Shown here piece after piece: positions 3,592-23,375 of a stretch of DNA of 64,000 bases. The translations under genes and the position numbers were made by a program. Origin of the DNA: Candidatus Thorarchaeota archaeon. GTDB taxonomy: Archaea; Asgardarchaeota; Thorarchaeia; Thorarchaeales; Thorarchaeaceae. The first letter of the stretch is position 1. Each line of letters starts with the position of its first letter. The stretch covers positions 590 to 64,589 of the forward strand of contig JAWOEX010000023.1 of NCBI GenBank assembly GCA_046482545.1, written 5' to 3'. The notes under the pieces were generated by a model, which made no database searches, was not told the origin of the DNA, and worked only from the letters and a program-made list of their open reading frames with translations.

Positions 3592-5010
3592 TTAGAACGG
3601 GCGCGCTTGAATAACAATCCGCAAAGAGACAGTAATTCGCCCCTCTGTTCTTCCTCCTACGTCCAGAAAACGGAATATCCATACATACTCCACATCAGAT
3701 ATAGGACCGCTGCCACCAGTGTCGAATCTAGTACCGTATACAGGGGTTCTTCCCCAACTGCGCCCGAATGATTCTTCCATTTCAGTTTCGTTCATCTGTT
3801 GGATTTCGCTTAATGTCATCTGTCGGTGTCGAAAGTTGTATCTGACGTATGCTGCATCCTGAGCACCACCATGAAGTTCCCCTTCACATGTGACGTATAG
3901 ACTCGTGTGCCGTTCTCCTTCAATTCCCTGAAATGAGCCTATCAGCCATTCTCCAATCTCGACTGATTCTCCTCCTGCAGGACTCTCATAAACAACAGTC
4001 CGCCATTCTTGGTTTCTCACTGTTGTATAACCAGCGCTTGTCAGAGGAAATAGTATAACGCACACAACAACAAACGCTGTCACCATTTTGCGTCTGAAAT
4101 GATAATTCTCCTGGAGCTTGGATGGAGTAGCTATGCTTTCTGGCCCATCCAAACCAGAAATAGAATCCATTTTCGTCTCCCATTCGCCCGAAAAAGCGAC
4201 CCATCTCTGCAAATTAGAAAGAAGGGAACGACTTGCTACAGTATACGAAATTAGTGAAATGACAAAGAAAACAACCATTGGGAGAAGGAGATTAATTGGT
4301 GCGAATTCAAATCCCACATACCAAGAAGCTGAGGCAGGACTTCCAAATCCTATTGCCATGATAAAGAGGAGAGCAAGAAGCATATGAGCCGGTCCAAACA
4401 ATGCCACTTCCGGATAGCTGACGGGAAAATGAGGCTGACCGGTGGCAACTGCAATTCCCAAAAACAAAGCTACACCAACAGCAATACTTGATTTCCAGCC
4501 ATCCATTGCCAGAGCAAATAGGGCCGTAATGGGACAAAGAAGCATAGTTATCGGAAGCACCGCTGTTATCAGGTGTGGTAGGTAAAGACCCCCTTCAGCG
4601 GACACCGAAAATGCAAATCGAATTGAAAACCCAAAGAAAACCGCCCAAACCATCATCATACAAGTGAACAACAGATAGGCAGTAAATAAGGGTGCAAATC
4701 TCAACTGCTTCTCTTCAAGTGCTGATTCGATAAAATTTTCCCGACTCTGCTCACTAGAGAAAAGCAAAGAAGCTGCCAAGACTATTGGAAAACCAATTGA
4801 GAAGATGTAACCGACGTACTCTGCAAGTCTGAAAATACTACCAAATGATCCCATCGTACCCCCAATGAGCGATAATAGGAAGGGAACAAATGAACATGTA
4901 CCGCCGATGAATGCCTTCTTGAAAGCAGACATCGGTAGAATCTTGAAACCTTCTTTGATATTCCATTCAAACCATCTACGGATTGCCTTCCCTAAATCCA
5001 TCATAGTCAC
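3592..5010 (-). CDS. Multi-pass membrane protein with a soluble C-terminal domain (ABC-2 permease-like N-terminus possible)
   Basis: 472-aa ORF with about 8 hydrophobic segments followed by a beta-rich hydrophilic domain. Confidence 0.65.
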   Translation of the reverse strand: MTMMDLGKAIRRWFEWNIKEGFKILPMSAFKKAFIGGTCSFVPFLLSLIGGTMGSFGSIFRLAEYVGYIFSIGFPIVLAASLLFSSEQSRENFIESALEEKQLRFAPLFTAYLLFTCMMMVWAVFFGFSIRFAFSVSAEGGLYLPHLITAVLPITMLLCPITALFALAMDGWKSSIAVGVALFLGIAVATGQPHFPVSYPEVALFGPAHMLLALLFIMAIGFGSPASASWYVGFEFAPINLLLPMVVFFVISLISYTVASRSLLSNLQRWVAFSGEWETKMDSISGLDGPESIATPSKLQENYHFRRKMVTAFVVVCVILFPLTSAGYTTVRNQEWRTVVYESPAGGESVEIGEWLIGSFQGIEGERHTSLYVTCEGELHGGAQDAAYVRYNFRHRQMTLSEIQQMNETEMEESFGRSWGRTPVYGTRFDTGGSGPISDVEYVWIFRFLDVGGRTEGRITVSLRIVIQARPF

Positions 5011-5092: not shown

Positions 5093-6907
5093 TTATCCCT
5101 CAGTATCTAGCCATTCTTTCAACGACTCCGCTAAGCTAGCTGATATGCCATCTACGCTGGCGAGGGCATCAACACTGGCGTTTTGAACATTCTGATAGCT
5201 TCCGAATGTCTTCAATAGAGCACTGCGCCTTTTGGGGCCAATTCCCGGAGCATCTTCAAGAATTGAGCCGGTGAACCTTTTCTCTCTCAACTTGTGATAG
5301 TAGCGCTGAGCAAATCGGTGTGCTTCATCTCGAATCTGTTGGATGAGCCGTAGTGCTACAGAATCTCTGGCGAAATCAATACCATCGGGCCTGTCCCGAG
5401 TGTAGAGGATTTCATCTTTCTTCGCAAGAGCTGCGACCTTGAGATATTCCAAACCGACTTCTGACAATGCTTCGAGGGCTGCACTTAATTGCCCCTTCCC
5501 ACCATCAATTAGAATCAAATCAGGTAAATCATTCGCGTGTTCAAGCATACTACGGTACCGTCTTGATACTACTTCTCTCATCATGGCATAGTCATCAGGC
5601 GTGTCTTTGGATCGTATTCGAAAATGCCTATAGGACGAATTATCAGGTTCACCGTTCTTGAACACTACGCAGGAGCCGGTGGCATCAGAGCCTTGGATAT
5701 TCGCGATGTCAAAGCCTTCAATATGAAGAGGAGCATGGTGAAGGTTGAGGACATTTCGCAATTCCTTGACACCATCACTAACTACTTCTTCGTCTTTCTG
5801 ATCAAGTATGAGAATTCTTCTGAGAGAACGTTTTGCATTCATATTAGCCATATGAACAAGCTCCTCAGTCTTTGATGTCTCAGGAAGGCCTATGTTTACT
5901 CTATGCTCCTCTGGCTCACTCAACCACGCCGCCAACTCGTCACGGTTTTCGATTTCCATGGGTAGTACAATTTCTTCGGGTACCTGTGGCAATGAGAAAT
6001 AAAACTGCTCCACGAAAGCCTGCAAGACTTCAGAATCAGTTGTATCTAGCTCTACTTCGAAGAAGAAATTATCATGACCGACTAGTCGACCGTTTCTCAC
6101 CAAGAGAATTTCAACGAGGGCCGCATGTTCAGTACGAGATACACCAAGGATGTCACGGTTAATACCATCTGTTTGGACGACTTTCTGTCTTCGCATAACT
6201 ATATCGAGGTCATCTATCCTATCTCGGATAGTTGCTGCTTTTTCGAATTGGAGTTGTTCAGCGGCCTTTTGCATCCGCTCTCTGAGTAATTCCCTCAGCT
6301 TGTCTCCCTTACCCTCAAGATACATGCACATATCTCGGACTAGAGAATGATAGTCTTCCTTCGTGATATTATCCATACAAGGGCCACTGCAGCGTCCAAG
6401 ATGATAATCCATGCATTCTCTTCTGACTCCTTCAGGATCCCTACACATGGCCACAGGAATAAAGCGACGTAGAGTATCCAGCAATCTTTCCAAACGGCGG
6501 GTGCTGCCATACGGACCGAAATACTTGGCACCATCCTTCGTGACATCCCGGGTCACTTCTAGAGTTGGAATGTTGGTATTCAGGTCAACTCGAATCCAAG
6601 CGTGACGCCTGTCGTCCTTGAGGGCAAGATTGTACTTGGGCTTGTGTTTCTTAATCATAGTAGCCTCGAGCAACAGAGCCTCGCGTTCAGTACTCGTGAG
6701 GATCGTTTCGATATCTTCAGCTCTCGACATCATTTCCCAAGTCTTTCTGTCAAGGCTGTTGGTTCTGAGATAAGAGCGAACTCGCTTTCTAAGGGACTTT
6801 GCCTTCCCGATGTATAGTATCCTCTCTCCTTCAGCTTTCCACATATAGACACCTGGCGAATCCGGAAGATCGTCAACGAGTTGATGGAGATTCTTGTCCG
6901 AATTCAC
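5093..6907 (-). CDS. uvrC: Excinuclease ABC subunit C
   Basis: GIY-YIG domain (PGVYMW...YIGKAKSLRKRVRSY), UVR domain (QLQFEKAATIRD), RNase H-like domain (IEGFDIAN, DGGKGQ, RDEAHRFA), HhH motif (GIGPKRR). Confidence 0.97.
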   Translation of the reverse strand: MNSDKNLHQLVDDLPDSPGVYMWKAEGERILYIGKAKSLRKRVRSYLRTNSLDRKTWEMMSRAEDIETILTSTEREALLLEATMIKKHKPKYNLALKDDRRHAWIRVDLNTNIPTLEVTRDVTKDGAKYFGPYGSTRRLERLLDTLRRFIPVAMCRDPEGVRRECMDYHLGRCSGPCMDNITKEDYHSLVRDMCMYLEGKGDKLRELLRERMQKAAEQLQFEKAATIRDRIDDLDIVMRRQKVVQTDGINRDILGVSRTEHAALVEILLVRNGRLVGHDNFFFEVELDTTDSEVLQAFVEQFYFSLPQVPEEIVLPMEIENRDELAAWLSEPEEHRVNIGLPETSKTEELVHMANMNAKRSLRRILILDQKDEEVVSDGVKELRNVLNLHHAPLHIEGFDIANIQGSDATGSCVVFKNGEPDNSSYRHFRIRSKDTPDDYAMMREVVSRRYRSMLEHANDLPDLILIDGGKGQLSAALEALSEVGLEYLKVAALAKKDEILYTRDRPDGIDFARDSVALRLIQQIRDEAHRFAQRYYHKLREKRFTGSILEDAPGIGPKRRSALLKTFGSYQNVQNASVDALASVDGISASLAESLKEWLDTEG

Positions 6908-6924: not shown

Positions 6925-9816
6925 TCAATTCTCTTGTTTAGCCTCTGCAGCTTTGGATAGAATAGGGCCTCTTCTCACCTCCGGCCCATAGAGTGTCTTA
7001 CGCAAGTGATTGCCAGTGTATGAAGAAGCAACTTCACAGAGGTCTTCAGGAGTTCCCTCTGCAATCAATCGCCCGCCTTCCTCTCCCCCTTCAGGGCCTA
7101 GGTCGATGATCCAATCGGCTGTCTTCACCACTTCTTGATTGTGCTCAATCATGATGATTGTGTTGCCCGTATCAATCAGACGATTCAGGACCTTCAGTAA
7201 GACATGTACGTCTGAAGCTGACAACCCGGTAGTGGGCTCATCCAAGATGTAAAGCGTATGACCTCTGCTCCGTCGAGACAGCTCTCTTGACAGCTTGACC
7301 CGCTGTGCCTCGCCGCCGCTGAGTGTTGTGGATGGCTGACCCAGCTCAAGATATCCCAGACCTACATCAACAAGTGTCTGGAGGCGATCCGCTATCTTCG
7401 GAAGGTCTGAGAAGAACTCAAGGGCCTCTTCAATCGTCATAGATAGAATATCATTGATATTCTTGTCTCGGTATGTGACTTCCAGAGTCTCTCTATCATA
7501 GCGCTGGCCATTACACACATCACATGTCACGTAGACATCGCTCATGAAGTGCATTTCTACTTTCAAGACGCCGCTTCCTTTGCACTTCTCGCATCTCCCC
7601 TCCTGTGTATTGAAACTGAATCGCGTCTTGCCATACCCTCGAGTCTTAGACTCAGGCATCCTAGCGAAGAGCTTCCTAATCGGAGTGAAGACCTTAGTAT
7701 ACGTTGCTGGATTGGAGCGAGGGGTCCGGCCAATAGGAGACTGATCAACAAGCACTACGCGGTCAATGTTTTCAATTCCTTCAATTGAATCGTATTTGCC
7801 GGCCTGTTTTGAAGCCCCATTTATTTCCTGAGCTAAGACGCGGTAGAAGGTTTGATTGAGAAGAGTGCTCTTCCCGCTCCCAGACACCCCGGTCACACAA
7901 GTAAAGATGCCTAATGGAAATTCAACATCAATATTCTTCAGGTTGTGTTCCCTGCACCCACGAATGATAATTGATTTGCCGTTGCCCTTCCTCCTATTTC
8001 GAGGTATAGGGATTTGTTTTTTACCAGCAAGATATTGCGCGGTGACAGACGCCGAATTATTCAGAACCTCGTTAGGTGGACCTTCTGTGACAACCTCTCC
8101 ACCATTGATTCCAGCACGCGGACCAAGGTCGATTATATGATCTGCGGCCTGTATGGTGTCCTTATCGTGTTCGATGACAACCACTGTATTTCCCAAACTT
8201 CTCAACTCGGTGAGTGTCTTGAGTAATCTAGATATATCGCGTGGATGGAGACCAATCGAAGGTTCATCCAAACAGTACAGCACACCGGTCAACGCTGAGC
8301 CAATCTGTGTTGCAAGTCGAATTCGCTGAGCTTCTCCACCAGATAGAGTAGCAGAGGAACGATCGAGGGTTAGATATTCTACTCCAACAGAAGTAATGAA
8401 TTCAAGTCTTGAGACAATCTCCTTCAAAATCAGCTTGGCAATCTTCTCTGCCCGTTCTGAAAGCTCCAGTGTGTCGAAGAACTCCAATGCATCAGTAATT
8501 GTCATTGAAGTAATTTCATCAATCGATTTGCCTCCAACAGTAACGGCTAAGCTTTCAGCTTTGAGTTTCTTCCCACCACAATCTGGGCAAACTGTCTGTC
8601 GGGCATACCTGTTCATGATTTTCTTCTTGTAGCCCTCAGAATAGTCGCTGTTGAGGTGTCTGTCAAGCCGTTGAATCATACCTTCCCAGGTTCTGGTGAC
8701 AGTAGTAGTTTTTGTTCCACCCTTTCGTCTTCTCCTCGTATAGCTGAACTTCACTCTCAACGACGGTTCGCCCCAGAGGAGTATATTCTTTGCTCGCAGT
8801 GAAAGGTCTTTCCACGGAGCATCCATGGAAAATCCACCCTTTCTAGCCAGCGCCTTCAGGAATTGCTGAGGCCAAGACCTGCTCGTATTCTTCCAAGGTC
8901 TAAAAGCGCCGTCTCTAAGACTCAGCGATTTGTCTGGTACTACGAGGTCAGGGTCAATTTCTATTGTCACTCCCAAACCATTGCATGTCGGGCATGCTCC
9001 TTCCGGGGTGTTATAGGAGAAAGCTTTCGGACCTAGTTTCTCATACTGGACACCACATTTCGGACATACTAGGTGCTCTGCAAATACAAGATCATCTTGG
9101 CCCTCCCGCGATACAATCGCTTTGCCGTCCCCAAATTCAATCGCGGTCTCAAGCGAACCGACAAGCCTCTCCCGATTCGAGTTACTCAATTCGATTCTGT
9201 CAACTACGACCTCGATATCATGACTTCTTCGACCATCAAGTTCAATCTTCTCTATTCTCTTAAATTCGCCATTGACTCTAGCCCTGACGAATCCGTCTTG
9301 AATCATGCTCTTCAACACGTCCTTGTGAGTACCGCGTTCACCTTCAACAGCGGGCGCAAGGACATGGATTCTCTCTCCCCCATTTTCGTCCAGCAAGAGC
9401 CTCGCAGCTGACTGTGCAGTAAGCTGTTCCATCGGATCTCCACACTCTGTGCAATGAGGGTTTCCCACATTGGCATACAACAAACGAAGGTAATCATGGA
9501 TTTCAGTACTGGTTGACACCGTACTCCGCGGATTTTTGCTTGAGCCTTTTTGTTCAATCGAAATTGCAGGAGGGAGTCCCGTAATCTTCTCGACTTGAGG
9601 TTTATCCAGACGGCCCAGAAAGCGGCGAGCATAGGAGGATAACGATTCTACATACCTACGCTGACCTTCCGAGAATATCGTATCAAAAACCAAGCTTGAT
9701 TTCCCAGAGCCAGAAGGACCTGTAACAACAACCAATCTGTCACGGGGAACGTCTACATCAATTGCCTTCAGATTGTGCTCTTCTGCCTTCCTCACTTTTA
9801 TGTGGCCTGTCATCAC
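6925..9816 (-). CDS. uvrA: Excinuclease ABC subunit A, paralog 2 (full length)
   Basis: Two Walker A motifs ([18 protein letters not shown]), two LSGGEAQR signatures, three Zn modules, UvrB-binding and insertion domains, [13 protein letters not shown]. Confidence 0.96.
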
Positions 9817-12722
9817 TCATCCCTCCCTGTCGATTCGCCAGAACCAGAGGCCGGTTCGAGCATCTCCCGAAGATAGATTCCAGTATAGGAATCGTCATTA
9901 TCCGCTACCTGTTCAGGGGTTCCTTCCGCAACAATATATCCACCTTCATCGCCACCCTCAGGGCCAAGGTCGATAATCCAATCAGCTGTTTTGACTACGT
10001 CCAGCTGGTGCTCGATGACTACGACTGTGTTTCCCATGTCAACAAGCCTGTGGAGAACATTCAACAATTTCTTGATATCGTCGAAGTGAAGCCCTGTTGT
10101 AGGTTCATCAAGCATAATGAGGGTTTGACCAGTTGCAGGTCGCGAAAGGTACTTGCTGAGCTTGATCCGTTGTGCTTCGCCACCGGACAATGTTGTAGAT
10201 GGTTGCCCGATTTTGACATATCCAAGTCCAACGTCCTTCAAAGTCTTCAACTTCTTTCGAATCTTGGGTAAATCCTCGAAGAATTCGTAGGCGTGATCAA
10301 TCCGCATATCGAGAACATCAGCGATGTTCTTTCCTTTGTATCGTATCTGTAGAGTGTCTCTATCATATCGTCGCCCGTTGCATTCGCTACACTTGACTTC
10401 TACTTCCGGCAAGAACTGCATTTCAACTACATCTACCCCGCGTCCTTTGCATTTCTCACATCGGCCGGGCTTCACGTTGAAACTAAATCTGCTCTTGGTA
10501 TATCCCCGAATCTTGGACTCCGGAAGACTAGCGAAGAGCTTCCTAATCGGAGTGAAGAGGCCTGTATATGTCCCAGGATTAGAGCGCGGTGTTCTACCGA
10601 TCGGACTCTGATCGATGACAACCACCTTATCAAGTTGGTCCGCACCGACGATTTCATCATGCTCGCCTGGAACTGCAGTTGAGTTATGGAATCGGCGCCC
10701 TAGTTCTCTCTGAAGCGTTTCCGTTATGAGACTTGATTTTCCTGAGCCTGAAACGCCAGTTACACTAACGAAGACTCCAAGCGGAATCTTGACGTCGATT
10801 GATTTTAGATTATGATGCCTCGCACCTCTGATTTCAACAAACTTGCCATTGGGGTTTCTTCGCTTCTCGGGAATTTCAATTTGCATTTCACCGCGAAGAT
10901 AAGATCCTGTAATCGAATCTTGGCACGACATCAAGTCATCCATCGTACCCGATACAACAACTTCCCCACCTTCGTCGCCTGCTCCAGGACCGAGGTCAAC
11001 TATGTGGTCAGCAGCTCGAATCGTCGATTCATCATGCTCAACCACAACTATCGTATTTCCTTGGTCTCGTAAACGGGTTAGAGAATTGAGCAACCGTAGG
11101 TTGTCGCGTTGATGGAGTCCTATCGAAGGTTCGTCACACACATAGGTAACTCCAACCAGATTTGATCCAATTTGACTGGCAAGACGGATTCTCTGCGATT
11201 CCCCTCCTGCAAGCGTCGGCGCTCGACGGTCAAGTGTCAGATAGTCAAGGCCAACTTCAGAAAGAAAGCGAATTCTGCTGGTAATTTCCTTGAAGATGGG
11301 ATAGGCGATAGGTTTCTCGCGTTCGTCAAGCTCAATGTCATCAAAGAAGTCACGAAGGTAACGTATTGACATTTGATTCAGGTCGGTTATGCTCTTGCCT
11401 CTAAAGCGTACAGCTTGGGATACTGGGCGGATTCGATTTCCTTTACATTCGGGGCAGAGTTTCTCGACCATGAATCGTTCGAGTTTCCTGCGAATACGCG
11501 AGCTCTTTGTTTTGTTGTAGTTCCGCCACATGTATGCAATCATGCCCTCATAGGGGGAGACCGATGTACCTTCCCACTGTGTTTTGTTCGGGTCATCACC
11601 ATGTTTCCACTTCACAACAACGTCTTCATCACCTGTGCCCCACAAGACCTTGGATTGATGCTCTGGAGAAAGATCCTCCCAAGGGGTATCCATAGAGAAG
11701 CCATACTTCTTAGCGACCGCTTTCAACGTGCTTGACTTGCTGGCCCAACCGTAGGGTTTGATGGCACCCTCGGAAATAGACAAGGACTTATCAGGAATAA
11801 CCAAGTCGGGGTCAATCTCGCGTACTGTACCCAATCCCGTGCAAGTTTCACACGCGCCATGTGGAGTATTCCATGAGAAGAGTCTGGGTTCCATTTCGGG
11901 TAGGCTGATTCCGCAATCAACACAGGCGAACTTCTCTGAGAGTGTTACTGTATCATCATCCACGAGAATACTCACAATACCATCAGCCATCTGCAATGCG
12001 GACTCCACAGCCTCGGATATTCTGCTTCGATTGGTAGGGGTTATCCTCACTCTGTCAAGTACAACTTCAATAGTATGCTCAAAATAGCGATCTAGCGACA
12101 TGCCTTGTTCGAGAGTTCGGAGCTCACCGTCAACGCGAGCACGAACAAATCCCTGCTGGATGAGCTCTTCGAATTCTTTTCGATATTCACCCTTCCGACC
12201 GCGAACAATAGGAGCCATAATCTGAACGCGTTTTCCTTCCTCCATATCCATAATTTGGTCTACAATCTGCTGGGCTGTCTGTGATTCTATCACATTGCCG
12301 CATTCAGGACAATGCGGGGTGCCAACTCGGGCAAAGAGCAGTCGGAGGAAATCGAACACTTCGGTAACTGTACCAACCGTGCTTCGGGGATTGCTACCCG
12401 CACTCTTCTGATCAATCGATATGGAAGGTGATAGACCGGACATGTAGTCGACCTGTGGTTTCTCCAGCATTCCAAGGAATTGTCTTGCATAGGAAGAGAG
12501 CGATTCCACGAATCTTCTCTGGCCTTCTGCAAACAGCGTATCAAATACGAGACTAGATTTACCTGAACCTGAGATGCCAGTAACCACCGTGAACCTGTTT
12601 CTTGGGATTTCGACATCGATATGCCTCAGGTTATGTTCAGCAGCCCCATGTATGACTATTGACTTGGGACCATCAAATTCGACTTCGTCTTGCCGTTCGT
12701 CTTGTTTTGTGAGTGTCTTCAT
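9813..12722 (-). CDS. uvrA: Excinuclease ABC subunit A, paralog 1 (full length)
   Basis: [57 protein letters not shown]; Zn modules present. Confidence 0.97.
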
Positions 12723-12725
12723 CTA

Positions 12726-14705
12726 TCAGGTGTCCTCAATCTTTGCTTTCAGTTCTTTAATGTGATCTCTAATCTGTGCAGCACGCTCGAATTCTAGTTT
12801 CTGTGCTGCATCTTTCATCTCTTCTTCAAGCTTGACAATTCGATCGGTAATAATCTCCAAGTCAACCAAATCGAAGTCCTCGAGCTTGAGCTGTTCCTTC
12901 TTCTGTTGTGACGGCATGTCCTGTGCTATGTCCTTGACGGATTTTTTGATTGATTTTGGAGTGATATTGTGCTTTTCATTGTACTTGAGCTGATATCTCC
13001 GACGCCTGTTCGTTTCGTCAATGGCCGATCGCATGGCGTCAGATATGTGATCACCGTACAGAATCACACGAGCGTTTACGTTCCTGGCCGCTCGCCCCAT
13101 GGTCTGTATCAGAGACCACTCGCTACGTAGAAAGCCCGCCTTGTCAGCATCCAATATGGCCACAAGCGAAACCTCTGGAAGATCAAGCCCCTCTCGGAGA
13201 AGATTGATTCCGACCAGAACATCGAACTTGCCAAGTCTTAAATCGCGGATGATTTCAATTCGTTCCACGGTTCCGATATCTGAGTGGAGGTACCGTGCCT
13301 TGACACCGTTCTCAACTAGATACTCTGAAAGCATCTCGGCGGTCTTCTTGGTGAGGGTGGTTGCGAGAACCCTATCGCCCATCTCCACAGTCTTGTGAAT
13401 AGCATTCAGCAAATCGTCAACTTGATTGTCTACAGGTCGTACCTCCACCTCTGGGTCTACAAGACCGGTTGGCCGAATGAGCTGTTCAACAATTTGGGCG
13501 CTCCTTCGCTTTTCGTAAGGTCCAGGGGTGGCAGTTGTGTAGATGACATGATTCATGAAATCTTCAAACTCTTCGAATTTCAGGGGGCGGTTATCCAAGG
13601 CCGATGGCAGCCTGAAACCGTAATCTACAAGGTTCTGCTTTCGCGACCTGTCTCCGTTATACATACCGCGGACCTGTGGTATGGTCATATGGCTTTCATC
13701 GATAATCATCAGGAATTCATCAGGGAAGTAATCAAGAAGAGTATAGGGACGCTGGCCTTTCGCTCGACCATCAATGTATCGCGAGTAGTTTTCAATGCCG
13801 CTGCACCAGCCGGTTTCACGAAGCATTTCGAGATCGTACCGAGTACGACGTTTCAATCGCTGTGCCTCAACTACCTTCCCTTGCTGTTTGAACCACTCAA
13901 CCTGTTCTTCCATATCTGCCTCTATCTCGTCAAGACATTCGAGTATCTTCTCGTGTCGCGCAACATGATGTCGAGCTGGATGTATCATTGCCCATGTCTG
14001 GTCGTAGAGCCTTCGAGAAGTCAAACCCTGCAGGTGAGAGATTCTGGATATTTCTTTGCCATCCAGTTCGATTCTGACTGCGTCCTTTGAGTAGCCAGGG
14101 TAGACATCAATCACATCCCCCCTCACCCTGAACACACCAGACTCGATTTCCATGTCATTGCGGTTGTATTGCATCACGACTAATTGTTCCAAGAGTTCAC
14201 GGCGGTCAACCTCATCACCCACTTCCACCATGAGAGACAACTTCTCATACTCCTCCGGATTGCCGAGGCCATAGATGCATGAAACCGATGCGATAACGAT
14301 GACATCCTCTCGGGTCTTCAGCGAACGAGTTGTGGAGTTGCGAAGGCGTTCAATCTCTCGATTGATGTCGGCCTCCTTCTCAATGTACATGTCTTTTGAT
14401 GGCACATAAGCTTCCGGGGTGTAGAAATCATAATAACTAACGAAGTATTCCACAGCGTTATCGGGGAAGAATTCCCTGTACTCAGAGGCAAGCTGAGCTG
14501 CAAGCGTCTTGTTGTGTGAAAGAACCAGCGTTGGCCGGCCGTATTCTTCAATAACATTCGCCATCGTGAATGTCTTACCGCTCCCCGTTACTCCAAGTAA
14601 CGTTTGATGGTCCAGGCCGCTTTCAAGCCCTTCAACCAACTGGCGTATGGCCTGCGGTTGATCACCTGTCGGTTCGAACGGTGCCTGTAGCTTGAAGTCT
14701 GCCAT
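12726..14705 (-). CDS. uvrB: Excinuclease ABC subunit B
   Basis: PTGDQPQAI, GVTGSGKT, beta-hairpin YYDFYTPEAY, DESH, C-terminal UVR domain. Likely start is MADFKL at 14705. Confidence 0.97.
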   Translation of the reverse strand: MADFKLQAPFEPTGDQPQAIRQLVEGLESGLDHQTLLGVTGSGKTFTMANVIEEYGRPTLVLSHNKTLAAQLASEYREFFPDNAVEYFVSYYDFYTPEAYVPSKDMYIEKEADINREIERLRNSTTRSLKTREDVIVIASVSCIYGLGNPEEYEKLSLMVEVGDEVDRRELLEQLVVMQYNRNDMEIESGVFRVRGDVIDVYPGYSKDAVRIELDGKEISRISHLQGLTSRRLYDQTWAMIHPARHHVARHEKILECLDEIEADMEEQVEWFKQQGKVVEAQRLKRRTRYDLEMLRETGWCSGIENYSRYIDGRAKGQRPYTLLDYFPDEFLMIIDESHMTIPQVRGMYNGDRSRKQNLVDYGFRLPSALDNRPLKFEEFEDFMNHVIYTTATPGPYEKRRSAQIVEQLIRPTGLVDPEVEVRPVDNQVDDLLNAIHKTVEMGDRVLATTLTKKTAEMLSEYLVENGVKARYLHSDIGTVERIEIIRDLRLGKFDVLVGINLLREGLDLPEVSLVAILDADKAGFLRSEWSLIQTMGRAARNVNARVILYGDHISDAMRSAIDETNRRRRYQLKYNEKHNITPKSIKKSVKDIAQDMPSQQKKEQLKLEDFDLVDLEIITDRIVKLEEEMKDAAQKLEFERAAQIRDHIKELKAKIEDT

Positions 14706-14899
14706 CTGCTCCAACCTCGGTGAAGGCAGCACGCACCCAAATGCTAGTAATATTTGTGGTGTGTGTAAGCCAAACGACGAAACAAACTAGATGCTACTGA
14801 TACTAGTTAGTGTCGCAACGACGCATTCCGGTTACATGAACATTCTAGAAGTGGAGAGATCGCCGAAAGTAACTCCTACAGTCTGTGCATTGCAATAGG

Positions 14900-15935: not shown

Positions 15936-17624
15936 ATGTATGAAAGCGCTCTGCTTGCATCGGCAGTAGCAGCCATTATTGCAGTTCTTTTCGCTCCCAA
16001 GTCATTTGGACAAGGGAGATGGACAAATCGTGCATTCATGCTCTTTGGATTTGTGTGTTCCATTCGGTTTGGTAATCTCTATTTTTGGCTGAACATGGCC
16101 AGTTCTAATCCTGTTTTCATTTATCTGAGGGGGCTAGATTTCTTGCTTGTTGTTCCAATCCTGGCATTGGGACTCGAGATGCTGCATTTCAACGCAATGG
16201 CAAGAGTGAAGGAGGTAAATCGAAATCTGAGGAGGATTTCTTTCATTGTTACTTCGGCCATCATGATGATGATAGTGGTACTCCTTCTGATTTTTGATAT
16301 TCAGACAGTGCGTATGATTGCCCTACTCACAGCCTTTCCAGTCATTTCCGGTATAATCGGGAGTTACCTAATTCTTTTCCGAGACAACCCACTCCGTATA
16401 GCAAGACCCGAGCTCGTTTGGGGTTCAATGTTGGTGTTGTTAGGATATCTCACCTATTTTCTGAGTGAAGGTTTTGTCGCGGGCTTTCTTCGAATGCTGA
16501 ACCTCACTCTCACCATCCAAATCATCGGGATGCTTCTCATTGGAGGGGGAGGAATCCTTCGTAGACTGGTTAGCTTCGCGGGTGTTTACTCGCGGCTTAG
16601 CTTGGGTACGATTCTTGTGAATCGAGACCTAGAAGCAACAATGACTACGATAGCGGATAACATATTATCCGAAGAACAGACCATCAGGGTAGCGAACGAA
16701 ATTATATCCATGCATAAGCAAGAGATAGAGCGGGTCTTTGAAACAGGAAACGAGCATGTTATTCCTTACTGTTCAATTGAATCGTACAAACCTGAACGTC
16801 TGCATCAGATTGAGATGGTCCCATATCGGATAGACATACGTGGGGACCCTGTTTCAGTAGCAATTGTATTGAGTGACGTAACAGTTTCCATCGAAGAAAA
16901 GGAAAAAGAGCAGCTTGCAGAATTGCTCAACGAAGTCGTAAGGGAAAGAAATAGGGCAGAGTTTTATTTGGACTTATTAACGCATGATATGGGTAATTTC
17001 CTTCAAGCGGTTCTAGGGGGGATGCAATTATTGGCGCAGCAATATAACATATCAAGCGAGAGTAACCAAACCTATGAAATAATCATGGACCAACTGAATG
17101 AATCAATAACCCTGATTCGGCAAGTTCGACATATAGGAATCGAAAACGTCGAGAAGGACCAGTTAGGACCGTACAGTATTAGCTCTGTACTCGAAGAAGC
17201 TGTAGAGAAAATCCAGGCCATGTGCCCGAACAAGGAGATCGATATCGAAGTGTTGCCGGCATTCAGACCGTTTCTAACAAATAGCCCTGAAACTCTAAAG
17301 CAAGGTATAGTTAGCCTATTTCGTTATATCGTACACTCGCAAGATGGAGAGGTACACATCAAAGCATCCCTTACAGCAACTGATTCACAGTGCCAGATTA
17401 GACTATCTTCTTCCAAAATCAGAACATTTGATGGTTTCAGCTCAGACCTATTCAAGTGGAATTCAGGAAGAGCGGACAAGTCAACCCAAACGGGAGATTA
17501 CGAACTTATTCTTTCAAAGATGTTCATTGAAAGAGCCGGAGGAAGTATCCAGTATGGTAAGTCAGAAGAAAGTGAGACGCCCGAATTCATCATTGAAGTG
17601 CCGTCGATTAAACAAGATGTGTAG
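15936..17624 (+). CDS. Membrane-bound histidine kinase-like protein with a degenerate ATPase domain
   Basis: About 7 N-terminal TM helices, PAS-like segment, H-box DLLTHDMGNFLQ; N, G1 and G2 boxes eroded. Confidence 0.75.
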   Translation: MYESALLASAVAAIIAVLFAPKSFGQGRWTNRAFMLFGFVCSIRFGNLYFWLNMASSNPVFIYLRGLDFLLVVPILALGLEMLHFNAMARVKEVNRNLRRISFIVTSAIMMMIVVLLLIFDIQTVRMIALLTAFPVISGIIGSYLILFRDNPLRIARPELVWGSMLVLLGYLTYFLSEGFVAGFLRMLNLTLTIQIIGMLLIGGGGILRRLVSFAGVYSRLSLGTILVNRDLEATMTTIADNILSEEQTIRVANEIISMHKQEIERVFETGNEHVIPYCSIESYKPERLHQIEMVPYRIDIRGDPVSVAIVLSDVTVSIEEKEKEQLAELLNEVVRERNRAEFYLDLLTHDMGNFLQAVLGGMQLLAQQYNISSESNQTYEIIMDQLNESITLIRQVRHIGIENVEKDQLGPYSISSVLEEAVEKIQAMCPNKEIDIEVLPAFRPFLTNSPETLKQGIVSLFRYIVHSQDGEVHIKASLTATDSQCQIRLSSSKIRTFDGFSSDLFKWNSGRADKSTQTGDYELILSKMFIERAGGSIQYGKSEESETPEFIIEVPSIKQDV

Positions 17625-22172: not shown

Positions 22173-23375
22173 TCAGAACATCAGCACATGCTCAAGGAAT
22201 GTTCGAATTTCCTGAGCATACGAGCCCGGAATCAGGATATGATGATTTGCAAGAGAATGTTGTAAGAAGTAATCAACAGGGCTGTCGAGGCGTATCTCTA
22301 GCTGCGTCCGACAGGCCTCTTTTCTTGTAAGATTTCTTTGAATAGTGCCTTCGGCTACCCAATAGTCAGAAAGGGCACTTCCAAAAACCTTCAAGAGAGT
22401 CACGTCGGATTTTGGAAACCGCCCGCGAATCCCGACACTTTTACCGGTTTCATAATGAGTCATGAAATCATAATCGTCAACAAGTGAAAACGGAACAGTA
22501 CAGTGAGCCAATACAACGGAGTTCTTGTTCTTGTTTACCTCGATAACGTTGGCCATGAAGGATGATTGACCAGTAAGAAGCTTCGCCAGTAGCATAGTGA
22601 ATGTTGATGGAACATCGCCCTCACATCCTGCAGGTATTCCAAGAGAATTCAGAGTTGCAAGTGCTAAGCAACCAGTAACATCAGTTGCTTCTACTAACCT
22701 AAAGCAATCAAGGGTGAGCGCATCGAGTTTCTGATACTTCTTGATGGTCAAGAGCGAACGAGTAATCTCTGAAGCCGACATCAGATCGTGCTTTTCAATT
22801 TGGTTATGAACAGGGACCATTTCAAGTTCTGCTAGTTCATCCATGTCAACAAGTTCAATGGATTCCAAGCGAGAAAAGGGTATGTTGATGATTTCCACAC
22901 CCCAGTTCTTTTGCACAGCGGATTTGTCAATCTGTGATGCAATTAGCCAAGACGAGGGGCTTCCAATGATGCCAATTCTCATTCCGTTTAGTTTACTGAA
23001 TATGTCCTCATAATAGTGGAGTATTTGAATTATCTCTCGAAGATCACCTAAGGAGCCCTGTTTGATTTCAGAGTCTATGTCGCACTGATCTAAATAAGCC
23101 CGTATTTCCATCGCAGCAGGCAATGAGTTGTTTTCCATATGTGCTAGTAGAACTGATGATTTGAGAGGCACTTGATTAACAAACGAAGCTACAAGTCCTT
23201 CGGTTCCGCCTGTACCAATGAAGAGTATCACACGATTAGCATTCATACCGGGAAGGGAATCAATATCATCCTCTGACCGGACCACAAAATCTACACTATC
23301 AAGCGTCTTCAAAATTCGGTGGGTGAGTTGCTTCCCGGCAATTGGGGAGAAGAAGGCTATAGTTGGCAAACTCAT
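22173..23375 (-). CDS. L-fucose/L-arabinose isomerase-like protein
   Basis: GIPAGCEGDV, AHCTVP, THYETG, CRTQL and NHH motifs. Confidence 0.8.
   Translation of the reverse strand: MSLPTIAFFSPIAGKQLTHRILKTLDSVDFVVRSEDDIDSLPGMNANRVILFIGTGGTEGLVASFVNQVPLKSSVLLAHMENNSLPAAMEIRAYLDQCDIDSEIKQGSLGDLREIIQILHYYEDIFSKLNGMRIGIIGSPSSWLIASQIDKSAVQKNWGVEIINIPFSRLESIELVDMDELAELEMVPVHNQIEKHDLMSASEITRSLLTIKKYQKLDALTLDCFRLVEATDVTGCLALATLNSLGIPAGCEGDVPSTFTMLLAKLLTGQSSFMANVIEVNKNKNSVVLAHCTVPFSLVDDYDFMTHYETGKSVGIRGRFPKSDVTLLKVFGSALSDYWVAEGTIQRNLTRKEACRTQLEIRLDSPVDYFLQHSLANHHILIPGSYAQEIRTFLEHVLMF

Follow-up and report, generated by a model that had tools for sequence, protein, structure and literature searches.

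We analysed a 64,000-nucleotide stretch of contig JAWOEX010000023.1 from a Candidatus Thorarchaeota archaeon (the whole stretch is referred to below as the window), in which the nucleotide excision repair (NER) genes uvrB, uvrA-1, uvrA-2 and uvrC are packed head to tail, all on the minus strand, as read from the list of open reading frames (ORFs) and family profiles (Table 1). The outer genes were assigned by the profiles NF003673 (uvrB, 1027.9 bits, cut-off 743) and TIGR00194 (uvrC, 569 bits, cut-off 285). The ATG of uvrA-1 begins 3 nt past the uvrB stop. The two uvrA ORFs, whose products are denoted A1 and A2, lie in different frames with a TGA stop between them: the A1 stop (9815-9813) overlaps an A2 ATG (9813-9811) by 1 nt, and a Shine-Dalgarno-like GGGAGGG lies 7 nt upstream. 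The database copy of A2 (P0005) is 962 aa long. An earlier note on this DNA, made without database searches, had described two tandem UvrAs of ~965 aa joined by a TGATG at 9811-9815, and both the ORFs and the junction sequence agree with that description, coordinates included. No further uvrA, uvrB or uvrC was found within the 64-kb window. As part of the explanation we consider best, the four genes are read as a single operon, uvrB-uvrA1-uvrA2-uvrC, in an Asgard archaeon.

Both copies have the make-up of complete class I UvrAs. With the UvrA equivalog profile NF001503 (cut-off 1147), the score is 1416.4 bits for A1 and 1381.3 bits for A2, the matches spanning profile positions 4-942 of 943, and the two proteins are 55% identical over 941 residues. 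The UvrB-interaction domain (PF17760) occupies residues 148-255 of A1 and 137-237 of A2, and the DNA-binding/insertion domain (PF17755) residues 304-416 and 288-400, respectively. The 12 Cys of the three zinc modules (C138, C141, C267, C270, C291, C294, C423, C426, C755, C758, C778 and C781 in A1 numbering) are invariant between A1 and A2, so that the retention of all these parts in both copies, as claimed in the earlier note, is confirmed. The Walker A Lys, Walker B Asp-Glu, Q-loop Gln and H-loop His are intact in both ATPase modules of A1 and A2. Non-canonical motifs are limited to signature I of A1 (LAGGE) and the D-loop of ATP-binding domain II of A2 (GLSAS), with the remaining LSGGE and GLH motifs canonical; to judge from the sequences, these two are deviations in motif detail, with no module lost. 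Neither protein matches the description of a class II UvrA, which is without the UvrB-binding domain and first zinc finger and is encoded away from uvrB and uvrC, and against the profile of a fused double UvrA (NF001885, 1,809 aa, cut-off 3,054 bits) A1 and A2 score only 728 and 738 bits.

Conservation of the two copies and fixed differences between them

As relatives, we took the best 120 database matches for A1 and the best 120 for A2. All 120 matches of A2 are closer to A2 than to A1 (61-100% identity); of the 120 matches of A1, 112 favour A1 over A2 by 8 identity points or more (64-92% identity), and the other 8 are long bacterial fusions. The two ortholog sets do not overlap. The organism labels of the listed orthologs are mostly Candidatus Thorarchaeota, with a few Hermodarchaeota, Sifarchaeia, Promethearchaeota and Lokiarchaeota, and one Bathyarchaeota. 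Among the 112 A1 and 120 A2 clusters listed, 39 A1/A2 cluster pairs (38 distinct values) have longest contigs of identical size, and therefore both genes travel together on contigs in many assemblies; three of the shared contigs measure only 7,948 to 10,583 bp. The pair recurs in assemblies carrying at least 5 different Asgard labels. Hence the second copy, whose presence in relatives the earlier note had treated as decisive, is there, as two separate ortholog sets on shared contigs. A scan of genome contigs with A2 as the query returned 14 bacterial loci with a single uvrA and no Asgard locus, and these loci served as outgroups. Two A1-like proteins, P0241 and P0244 (64% identity), branch at the base of the A1 clade, carry the ancestral Tyr55, Ala84 and LSGGE (see below), and have no A2 on an equal-sized contig among the best 120 A2 matches; they may represent a lineage with a single UvrA.

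Evolutionary rates were compared in 39 genomes with both copies (38 matched relatives and the window; 741 genome pairs). Ortholog identity across genomes is 0.745 for A1 and 0.730 for A2, and the summed distances have a ratio A2/A1 of 1.08 (r = 0.90). Inside one genome, the identity of A1 to A2 is 0.47-0.55. The near-equal rates, together with a within-genome identity of only 47-55%, indicate that there has been no decay of either copy, and no gene conversion or homogenisation between them. These protein distances give no sign of relaxed selection on either copy, the other outcome that the earlier note had considered damaging to its proposal, and the sequence comparisons indicate that the pair is old and maintained, neither copy decaying.

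We then mapped the residues of A1 and A2 on the cryo-electron microscopy study of Clostridium thermocellum (Ct) UvrA (PMC12796330); in the N-terminal region, A2 numbering equals Ct numbering. Counts are over 112 A1 orthologs, 118 A2 orthologs and 12 bacterial UvrAs. According to that study, Ct Tyr55 touches Tyr55, Pro83, Ala84 and Ile85 of the other subunit at the two-fold axis, and Tyr62, Gln65 and Phe66 form a wedge inserted into the DNA helix. The position of Tyr55 is Tyr in 118/118 A2 and 12/12 bacterial proteins and Phe in 110/112 A1 proteins; that of its contact partner Ala84 is Ala in 118/118 A2 and 12/12 bacterial proteins and Ser in 110/112 A1 proteins. The two A1-like exceptions, again P0241 and P0244, carry Tyr and Ala jointly. 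At the wedge position Gln65 the change lies in the other copy: Gln is found in 112/112 A1 and 12/12 bacterial proteins, and Arg in 118/118 A2 proteins. Overall, 395 alignment columns are at least 90% conserved in both clades, of which 77 differ between the clades; polarised against the 12 bacterial UvrAs, 29 of these appear A1-derived, 14 appear A2-derived and 34 are unclear. Among the published interface and wedge positions, 12 of 17 are identical in A1 and A2. The interface domain is discontinuous, comprising roughly residues 1-105 and 521-620. Where the 12 bacteria are invariant, further changes derived in A1 include VLDEP to VCDEP, IEHN to IEHQ and, next to the signature-II hairpin, Asp to Pro. 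The UvrB-binding domains carry two charge reversals, each fixed at 90% or more per clade (A1 Arg176 vs. A2 Glu160, and A1 Glu215 vs. A2 Lys198), at positions that vary in the bacterial outgroups.

The earlier note had pointed to several motif differences and had proposed that the two copies diverged in a complementary manner; the divergence is indeed fixed in each clade and, beyond what the note had listed, includes residues of the dimer axis and the wedge. LAGGE in signature I, described there for paralog 1, is present and is a trait of the clade (106/112 A1 orthologs), although it is not universal. This signature is part of the distal ATPase site; as described in PMC6486640, the distal site of UvrA is the tight-binding, fast one, and earlier work cited there links its activity to dimerisation. 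The departure of paralog 2 from DEPTTGLH proved to be a general one: the His of D-loop II is missing in 118/118 A2 orthologs (Ser in 114 and Ala in 4), whereas it is kept in 112/112 A1 and 12/12 bacterial proteins. With respect to the insertion hairpin, said to be acidic in paralog 1 and strongly basic in paralog 2, the first half of the contrast stands, the acidic motif being a feature of the A1 clade, and the second half does not: among the 14 rows compared, YTRRRRKGG is confined to the window's own A2 and a relative 90% identical to it, and the net charge of the corresponding A2 stretch across the clade has a mean of -0.28 and a range of -4 to +9. Given this variable charge, the basic hairpin is local and not a property of the paralog.

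Single-unit UvrAs, fused double UvrAs and the origin of the pair

For comparison with UvrAs that consist of one unit, we used a sample of 135 proteins, namely 12 from loci, 120 database proteins found with a profile of eight bacterial UvrAs, and those of the Mycobacterium tuberculosis (Mtb), Geobacillus stearothermophilus (Bst) and Ct structures. Tyr55, Gln65 and Ala84 are each present in 135/135 of these, and the signature-I Ser and the D-loop His-Phe in 120/120 of the single-length database UvrAs. The wedge Arg was not seen in any of the 135.

A profile built from A1 and A2 was searched against 1.84 billion cluster representatives, and its best 150 matches are almost only proteins of 1,200-2,340 aa containing two UvrA units. 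Of the eight long fusions among the best 120 A1 matches, five are labelled Planctomycetes-type or Poribacteria. Together these make a set of 158 proteins (150 + 8), of which 155 exceed 1100 aa and 37 hold two complete UvrA units; both UvrB-binding domains are present in all 14 of the 37 that were checked for domain content. In 16 of the 37 fusions the wedge Arg occurs in one unit only (8 in the N unit and 8 in the C unit), in none does it occur in both, and in 3 another non-Gln residue is found. Ala84 is altered in one unit of 17/37 fusions and in both units of 11, Tyr55 in one unit of 10 and in both of 3, and the His of D-loop II in one unit of 4 and in both of 1; the signature-I Ser is replaced by Ala in one unit of 4/37. 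Two fusions, P0255 and P0261, match the Thorarchaeota arrangement, with Phe55/Gln65/Thr84 in one unit and Tyr55/Arg65/Ala84 in the other. Phe55 and Ser/Thr84 occur in the same fusion unit in 3 cases and in opposite units in 1 (hand count), too few to use. On a FastTree phylogeny of 104 units, calculated with the wedge column removed, the wedge Arg state changed at least 8 times, in several separate clades, and therefore an arrangement of two tied UvrA units with a single Arg wedge arose repeatedly.

P0245 (2,334 aa) and P0247 (2,343 aa) are fused double UvrAs with ~320 residues past the second unit and are 59-68% identical to proteins labelled Planctomycetes; within each protein, the two units are more closely related to one another than to any other unit, which suggests a recent internal duplication. 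On a Paratractidigestivibacter contig (L006:7133-14783), a UvrA unit continues into another one that occupies two further frames, with His at the wedge of the first unit (SSYARHF) and Gln at that of the second (SSYARQF); the locus holds a fused double UvrA, or else a frameshift introduced during assembly.

In a maximum likelihood (ML) tree of 47 rows (IQ-TREE, LG+C20 PMSF, quick search), A1 and A2 are each monophyletic, both with 100 in the Shimodaira-Hasegawa-like approximate likelihood ratio test (SH-aLRT), and the A2 stem is longer than the A1 stem (0.38 vs. 0.19). A1 clusters with the N units of the fused P0248, P0255 and P0256 (SH-aLRT 96), and the pair and some of the fusions may therefore share one origin. 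Holding A1 and A2 together was not rejected (approximately unbiased (AU) test, p = 0.294, log-likelihood (lnL) difference 10.6), nor was a grouping of A2 with the C units of P0246, P0248, P0255 and P0256 (p = 0.271, lnL difference 4.8), a group picked after seeing the tree. The two copies may thus have arisen by a duplication in this lineage followed by fast evolution along the A2 stem, by two acquisitions, or by common descent with a bacterial fusion. Fission of an Asgard fused form was also considered and was rejected, as, among the rows listed, none of the first 60 long proteins compared exceeds ~61% identity to A1 or A2, and then over a short stretch.

Proposed pairing of the two copies

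Taking these comparisons together, we lean, with moderate confidence, towards the view that A1 and A2 form an asymmetric heterodimer, one lopsided sensor. This was one of two readings offered in the earlier note, whose interpretation is borne out in part. Matched co-production of the two paralogs is suggested by the spacing of the genes (a 3-nt gap, a 1-nt overlap and a 17-nt gap), and one mRNA would then supply both in matched amounts. Paralogs that descend from a homodimer and are made together are by default expected to cross-pair. A1 and A2 would do so via the largely conserved interface of ATP-binding domain I, replacing the usual UvrA homodimer, and the resulting dimer would be uneven in three respects. 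The wedge at the two-fold axis would receive Gln from A1 and Arg from A2; the axis contact between positions 55 and 84 would be built from Phe/Ser in A1 and Tyr/Ala in A2; and, among the ATPase modules, those of A1 would have Ala in place of Ser in the distal-site signature, while those of A2 would be without the D-loop His in ATP-binding domain II. The two UvrB loading positions of such a dimer would differ and, more speculatively, unequal UvrB positions could build into the sensor a polarity with respect to the two strands of the DNA.

Several observations weigh against this interpretation. What favours a heterodimer over homodimers is comparative inference only. A2 keeps the ancestral Tyr55 and Ala84, so A2 homodimers should still form, and the coupled Phe55 and Ser84 both lie in A1, which fits an A1 homodimer as well as a heterodimer. 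The interface positions are not enriched in paralog-specific change (5 of 17, compared to 72 of 378 other conserved columns; Fisher p = 0.34). LSGGE is retained in four A1s on contigs that are size-matched to an A2 (P0202, P0217, P0218 and P0239), and LAGGE is accordingly not obligatory. The pairing of A1 with A2 in relatives is read from equal contig size alone, not from adjacency or overlap at the DNA level, and on the ML tree A1 and A2 are not sisters. As to the fusions, the excess of wedge Arg (16/37 vs. 0/135 in single-unit UvrAs) has a Fisher p = 9 × 10−13 that ignores phylogeny; the 135 single-unit UvrAs are phylogenetically narrow, the names of the 120 database proteins being almost all Betaproteobacteria; that no fusion has Arg in both of its units does not reach significance (0/37, with 1.7 expected; P = 0.17); and, in principle, pairing between two fused molecules could be of N with N' and of C with C'.

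In the main alternative, two homodimeric sensors, A1-A1 and A2-A2, might instead share one UvrB and one UvrC and differ in their preference for lesions or DNA shapes (e.g., through a Gln/Gln vs. an Arg/Arg wedge). Every module needed for autonomous function is kept in both copies, UvrB-binding domains included, the ancestral self-interface is retained by A2, and Phe55 and Ser84 changed jointly within A1, as the two sides of a self-interface would. We nevertheless regard such a division of labour as unlikely, since the same substitutions are found in one unit only of fused double UvrAs, where the two units are covalently held at 1:1, since the wedge Arg is found neither in both units of any of the 37 fusions nor in any of the 135 single-unit UvrAs, and since the interface positions are for the most part common to A1 and A2, with nothing seen that blocks cross-pairing.

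The same shared interface, with no enrichment of changes, and the apparent catalytic completeness of both copies would also fit random pairing, in which A1-A1, A1-A2 and A2-A2 dimers all form and work and the fixed differences tune the pool of sensors. Random pairing leaves unexplained, however, why the derived states are invariant in each clade (110-118 of 112-118) and never mixed, and why the design with one Arg was fixed repeatedly in the fusions, and we give it a low probability.

One might also take A1 or A2 for a superfluous duplicate, or for the result of a second horizontal transfer, kept for dosage with no special joint function. The ML tree leaves room for this, as the non-sister copies allow two acquisitions, and PMC12993045 assigns archaeal UvrABC a bacterial origin. 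Such a reading is very improbable, given that the copies are 47-55% identical within every genome and yet each 73-75% identical across genomes at equal rates, that 77 columns are conserved in both clades and differ between them, that the pair recurs under several Asgard labels, and that complementary changes at invariant residues are not what duplicates kept for dosage would be expected to fix.

The heterodimer reading can be extended beyond the window, to the proposal that UvrA repeatedly became an obligate asymmetric two-unit sensor, in the form of tandem genes in Thorarchaeota-type Asgard archaea and of fused proteins in several bacterial lineages, with the wedge Arg in one protomer and non-equivalent UvrB sites. 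We put this forward tentatively, as a possibility that is more doubtful than the heterodimer itself.

Features of the window, known systems and significance

The features discussed above are collected in Table 1. The genes around the uvr cluster are ordinary housekeeping genes, and scans of the window for Rfam families and tRNAs gave no matches. Downstream of uvrC, at a distance of 83 nt and in the same orientation, is a 472-aa ORF (3592-5010, minus strand) with no Pfam match at E ≤ 10−5, which could belong to the same transcription unit. Two other ORFs, of 562 aa (15936-17624, plus strand) and 400 aa (22173-23375, minus strand), likewise have no Pfam match at E ≤ 10−5. Cumulative GC skew reaches a minimum at ~30-32 kb, where the predominant gene strand flips from minus to plus, and this minimum may simply track gene orientation.

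Table 1. Coordinates of the uvr genes and of features within and beside them.
Feature	Coordinates	Strand	Remarks
uvrB	12726..14732	minus	668 aa from GTG; likely true start ATG 14705-14703; NF003673 match begins at residue 13
Candidate archaeal promoter, TATA-like box AAATATTA	14748..14755	minus	43-50 nt upstream of uvrB ATG; read from sequence
uvrA-1 (A1)	9813..12722	minus	969 aa, ATG; full-length class I UvrA
A1 residues 70-101, ATP-binding-I dimer interface and wedge	12420..12515	minus	Phe71 (Ct Tyr55), Gln81 (Ct Gln65), Ser100 (Ct Ala84)
A1 insertion-domain stretch KHGDDPNK	11583..11606	minus	conserved acidic WGDDP-type motif of the clade
A1 signature I LAGGE (canonical LSGGE), part of distal ATPase site	11199..11213	minus	site composition from PMC6486640 and PMC12796330
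A1/A2 junction, GGGAGGG then TGATG stop/start overlap	9811..9827	minus	sequence GGGAGGGATGAGTGATG
uvrA-2 (A2)	6925..9816	minus	963 aa from GTG 9816, or 962 aa from ATG 9813; full-length class I UvrA
A2 residues 54-85, interface and wedge	9562..9657	minus	Tyr55 and Ala84 ancestral; Arg65 derived wedge residue
A2 insertion-domain stretch YTRRRRKGG	8716..8742	minus	basic; not kept across the clade
A2 D-loop after Walker B of ATP-binding domain II, GLSAS (canonical GLHF)	7213..7227	minus	sequence comparison
uvrC	5093..6907	minus	604 aa; GTG start 17 nt past A2 stop; preceded by AGAGGTGA
First charge-reversal codons, A1 R176 / A2 E160	12195-12197 / 9337-9339		hand-computed
Second charge-reversal codons, A1 E215 / A2 K198	12078-12080 / 9223-9225		hand-computed

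The homodimeric class I UvrAs of E. coli, G. stearothermophilus (2R6F), M. tuberculosis (3ZQJ) and C. thermocellum (9GXK) share with A1 and A2 the full domain set, two ABC modules and three zinc modules. The window differs from them in having two diverged genes instead of one, and in the replacement of residues that are invariant in the single UvrAs, A1 having Tyr55Phe, Ala84Ser and signature-I Ser-to-Ala, and A2 having Gln65Arg and no longer carrying the D-loop II His. The class II UvrAs (Deinococcus UvrA2, 2VF7; DrrC; Ecm16, 7SH1) are likewise products of a second UvrA-family gene and DNA-binding ABC ATPases; those of class IIa, as defined in PMC9328131, are without the first zinc finger and the UvrB-binding domain, have ~40% identity to class I and act outside NER. 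This definition agrees with the earlier note's statement that accessory copies of the UvrA2/DrrC type usually are without a UvrB-binding domain, whereas A1 and A2 keep both the first zinc finger and that domain and are encoded between uvrB and uvrC. Closer to the window pair are the bacterial fused double UvrAs (1,500-2,340 aa, some with Planctomycetes or Poribacteria labels, one type being profiled by NF001885), which have two complete class I units per entity and in which positions 55, 65 and 84, signature I and D-loop II diverge in one unit, as in the window; these are, however, single polypeptides of bacteria, whereas the window has two genes split by a stop codon. Heterodimeric ABC proteins with one degenerate ATP site (TAP1/2, CFTR-type) are generally described as paralogous partners with one non-canonical signature or loop motif. 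UvrA differs from these in that both of its composite ATP sites lie in one chain, so that an asymmetry of A1-A2 would be between the protomers of a four-site dimer, and in that Walker A, Walker B and the H-loop are intact in both UvrAs of the window.

In the literature searched, which lay outside subscription journals, UvrA is described only as a symmetric homodimer, and our searches brought up no publication on class I UvrAs paired in tandem or by fusion, on UvrA heterodimers or on duplicated uvrA in Asgard archaea, and no functional study of fused double UvrAs. Older reviews reportedly list duplicated UvrAs among the UvrA classes; Marszalkowska et al. 2013, on UvrA classification and cited in PMC9328131, and the reviews of Goosen and Moolenaar may mention them.

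The fixed differences between A1 and A2 fall on wedge and dimer-axis residues that were structurally defined only in 2025 (PMC12796330). Bacterial-type NER is modelled with a symmetric UvrA2 dimer loading two UvrB, and the choice of the damaged strand is still listed as an open question in PMC7835731 and PMC7616783. A conserved, diverged UvrA pair would give ready-made asymmetric variants for probing strand choice, and would show that UvrABC was remodelled by archaea that had acquired it. The likeness to the many fused double UvrAs, which are uncharacterised, points to a general principle of design, not to a peculiarity of a single genome. If this is true, an obligate two-unit UvrA would be intrinsically polar, and this polarity could influence the order in which the strands, or the UvrB molecules, are tested.

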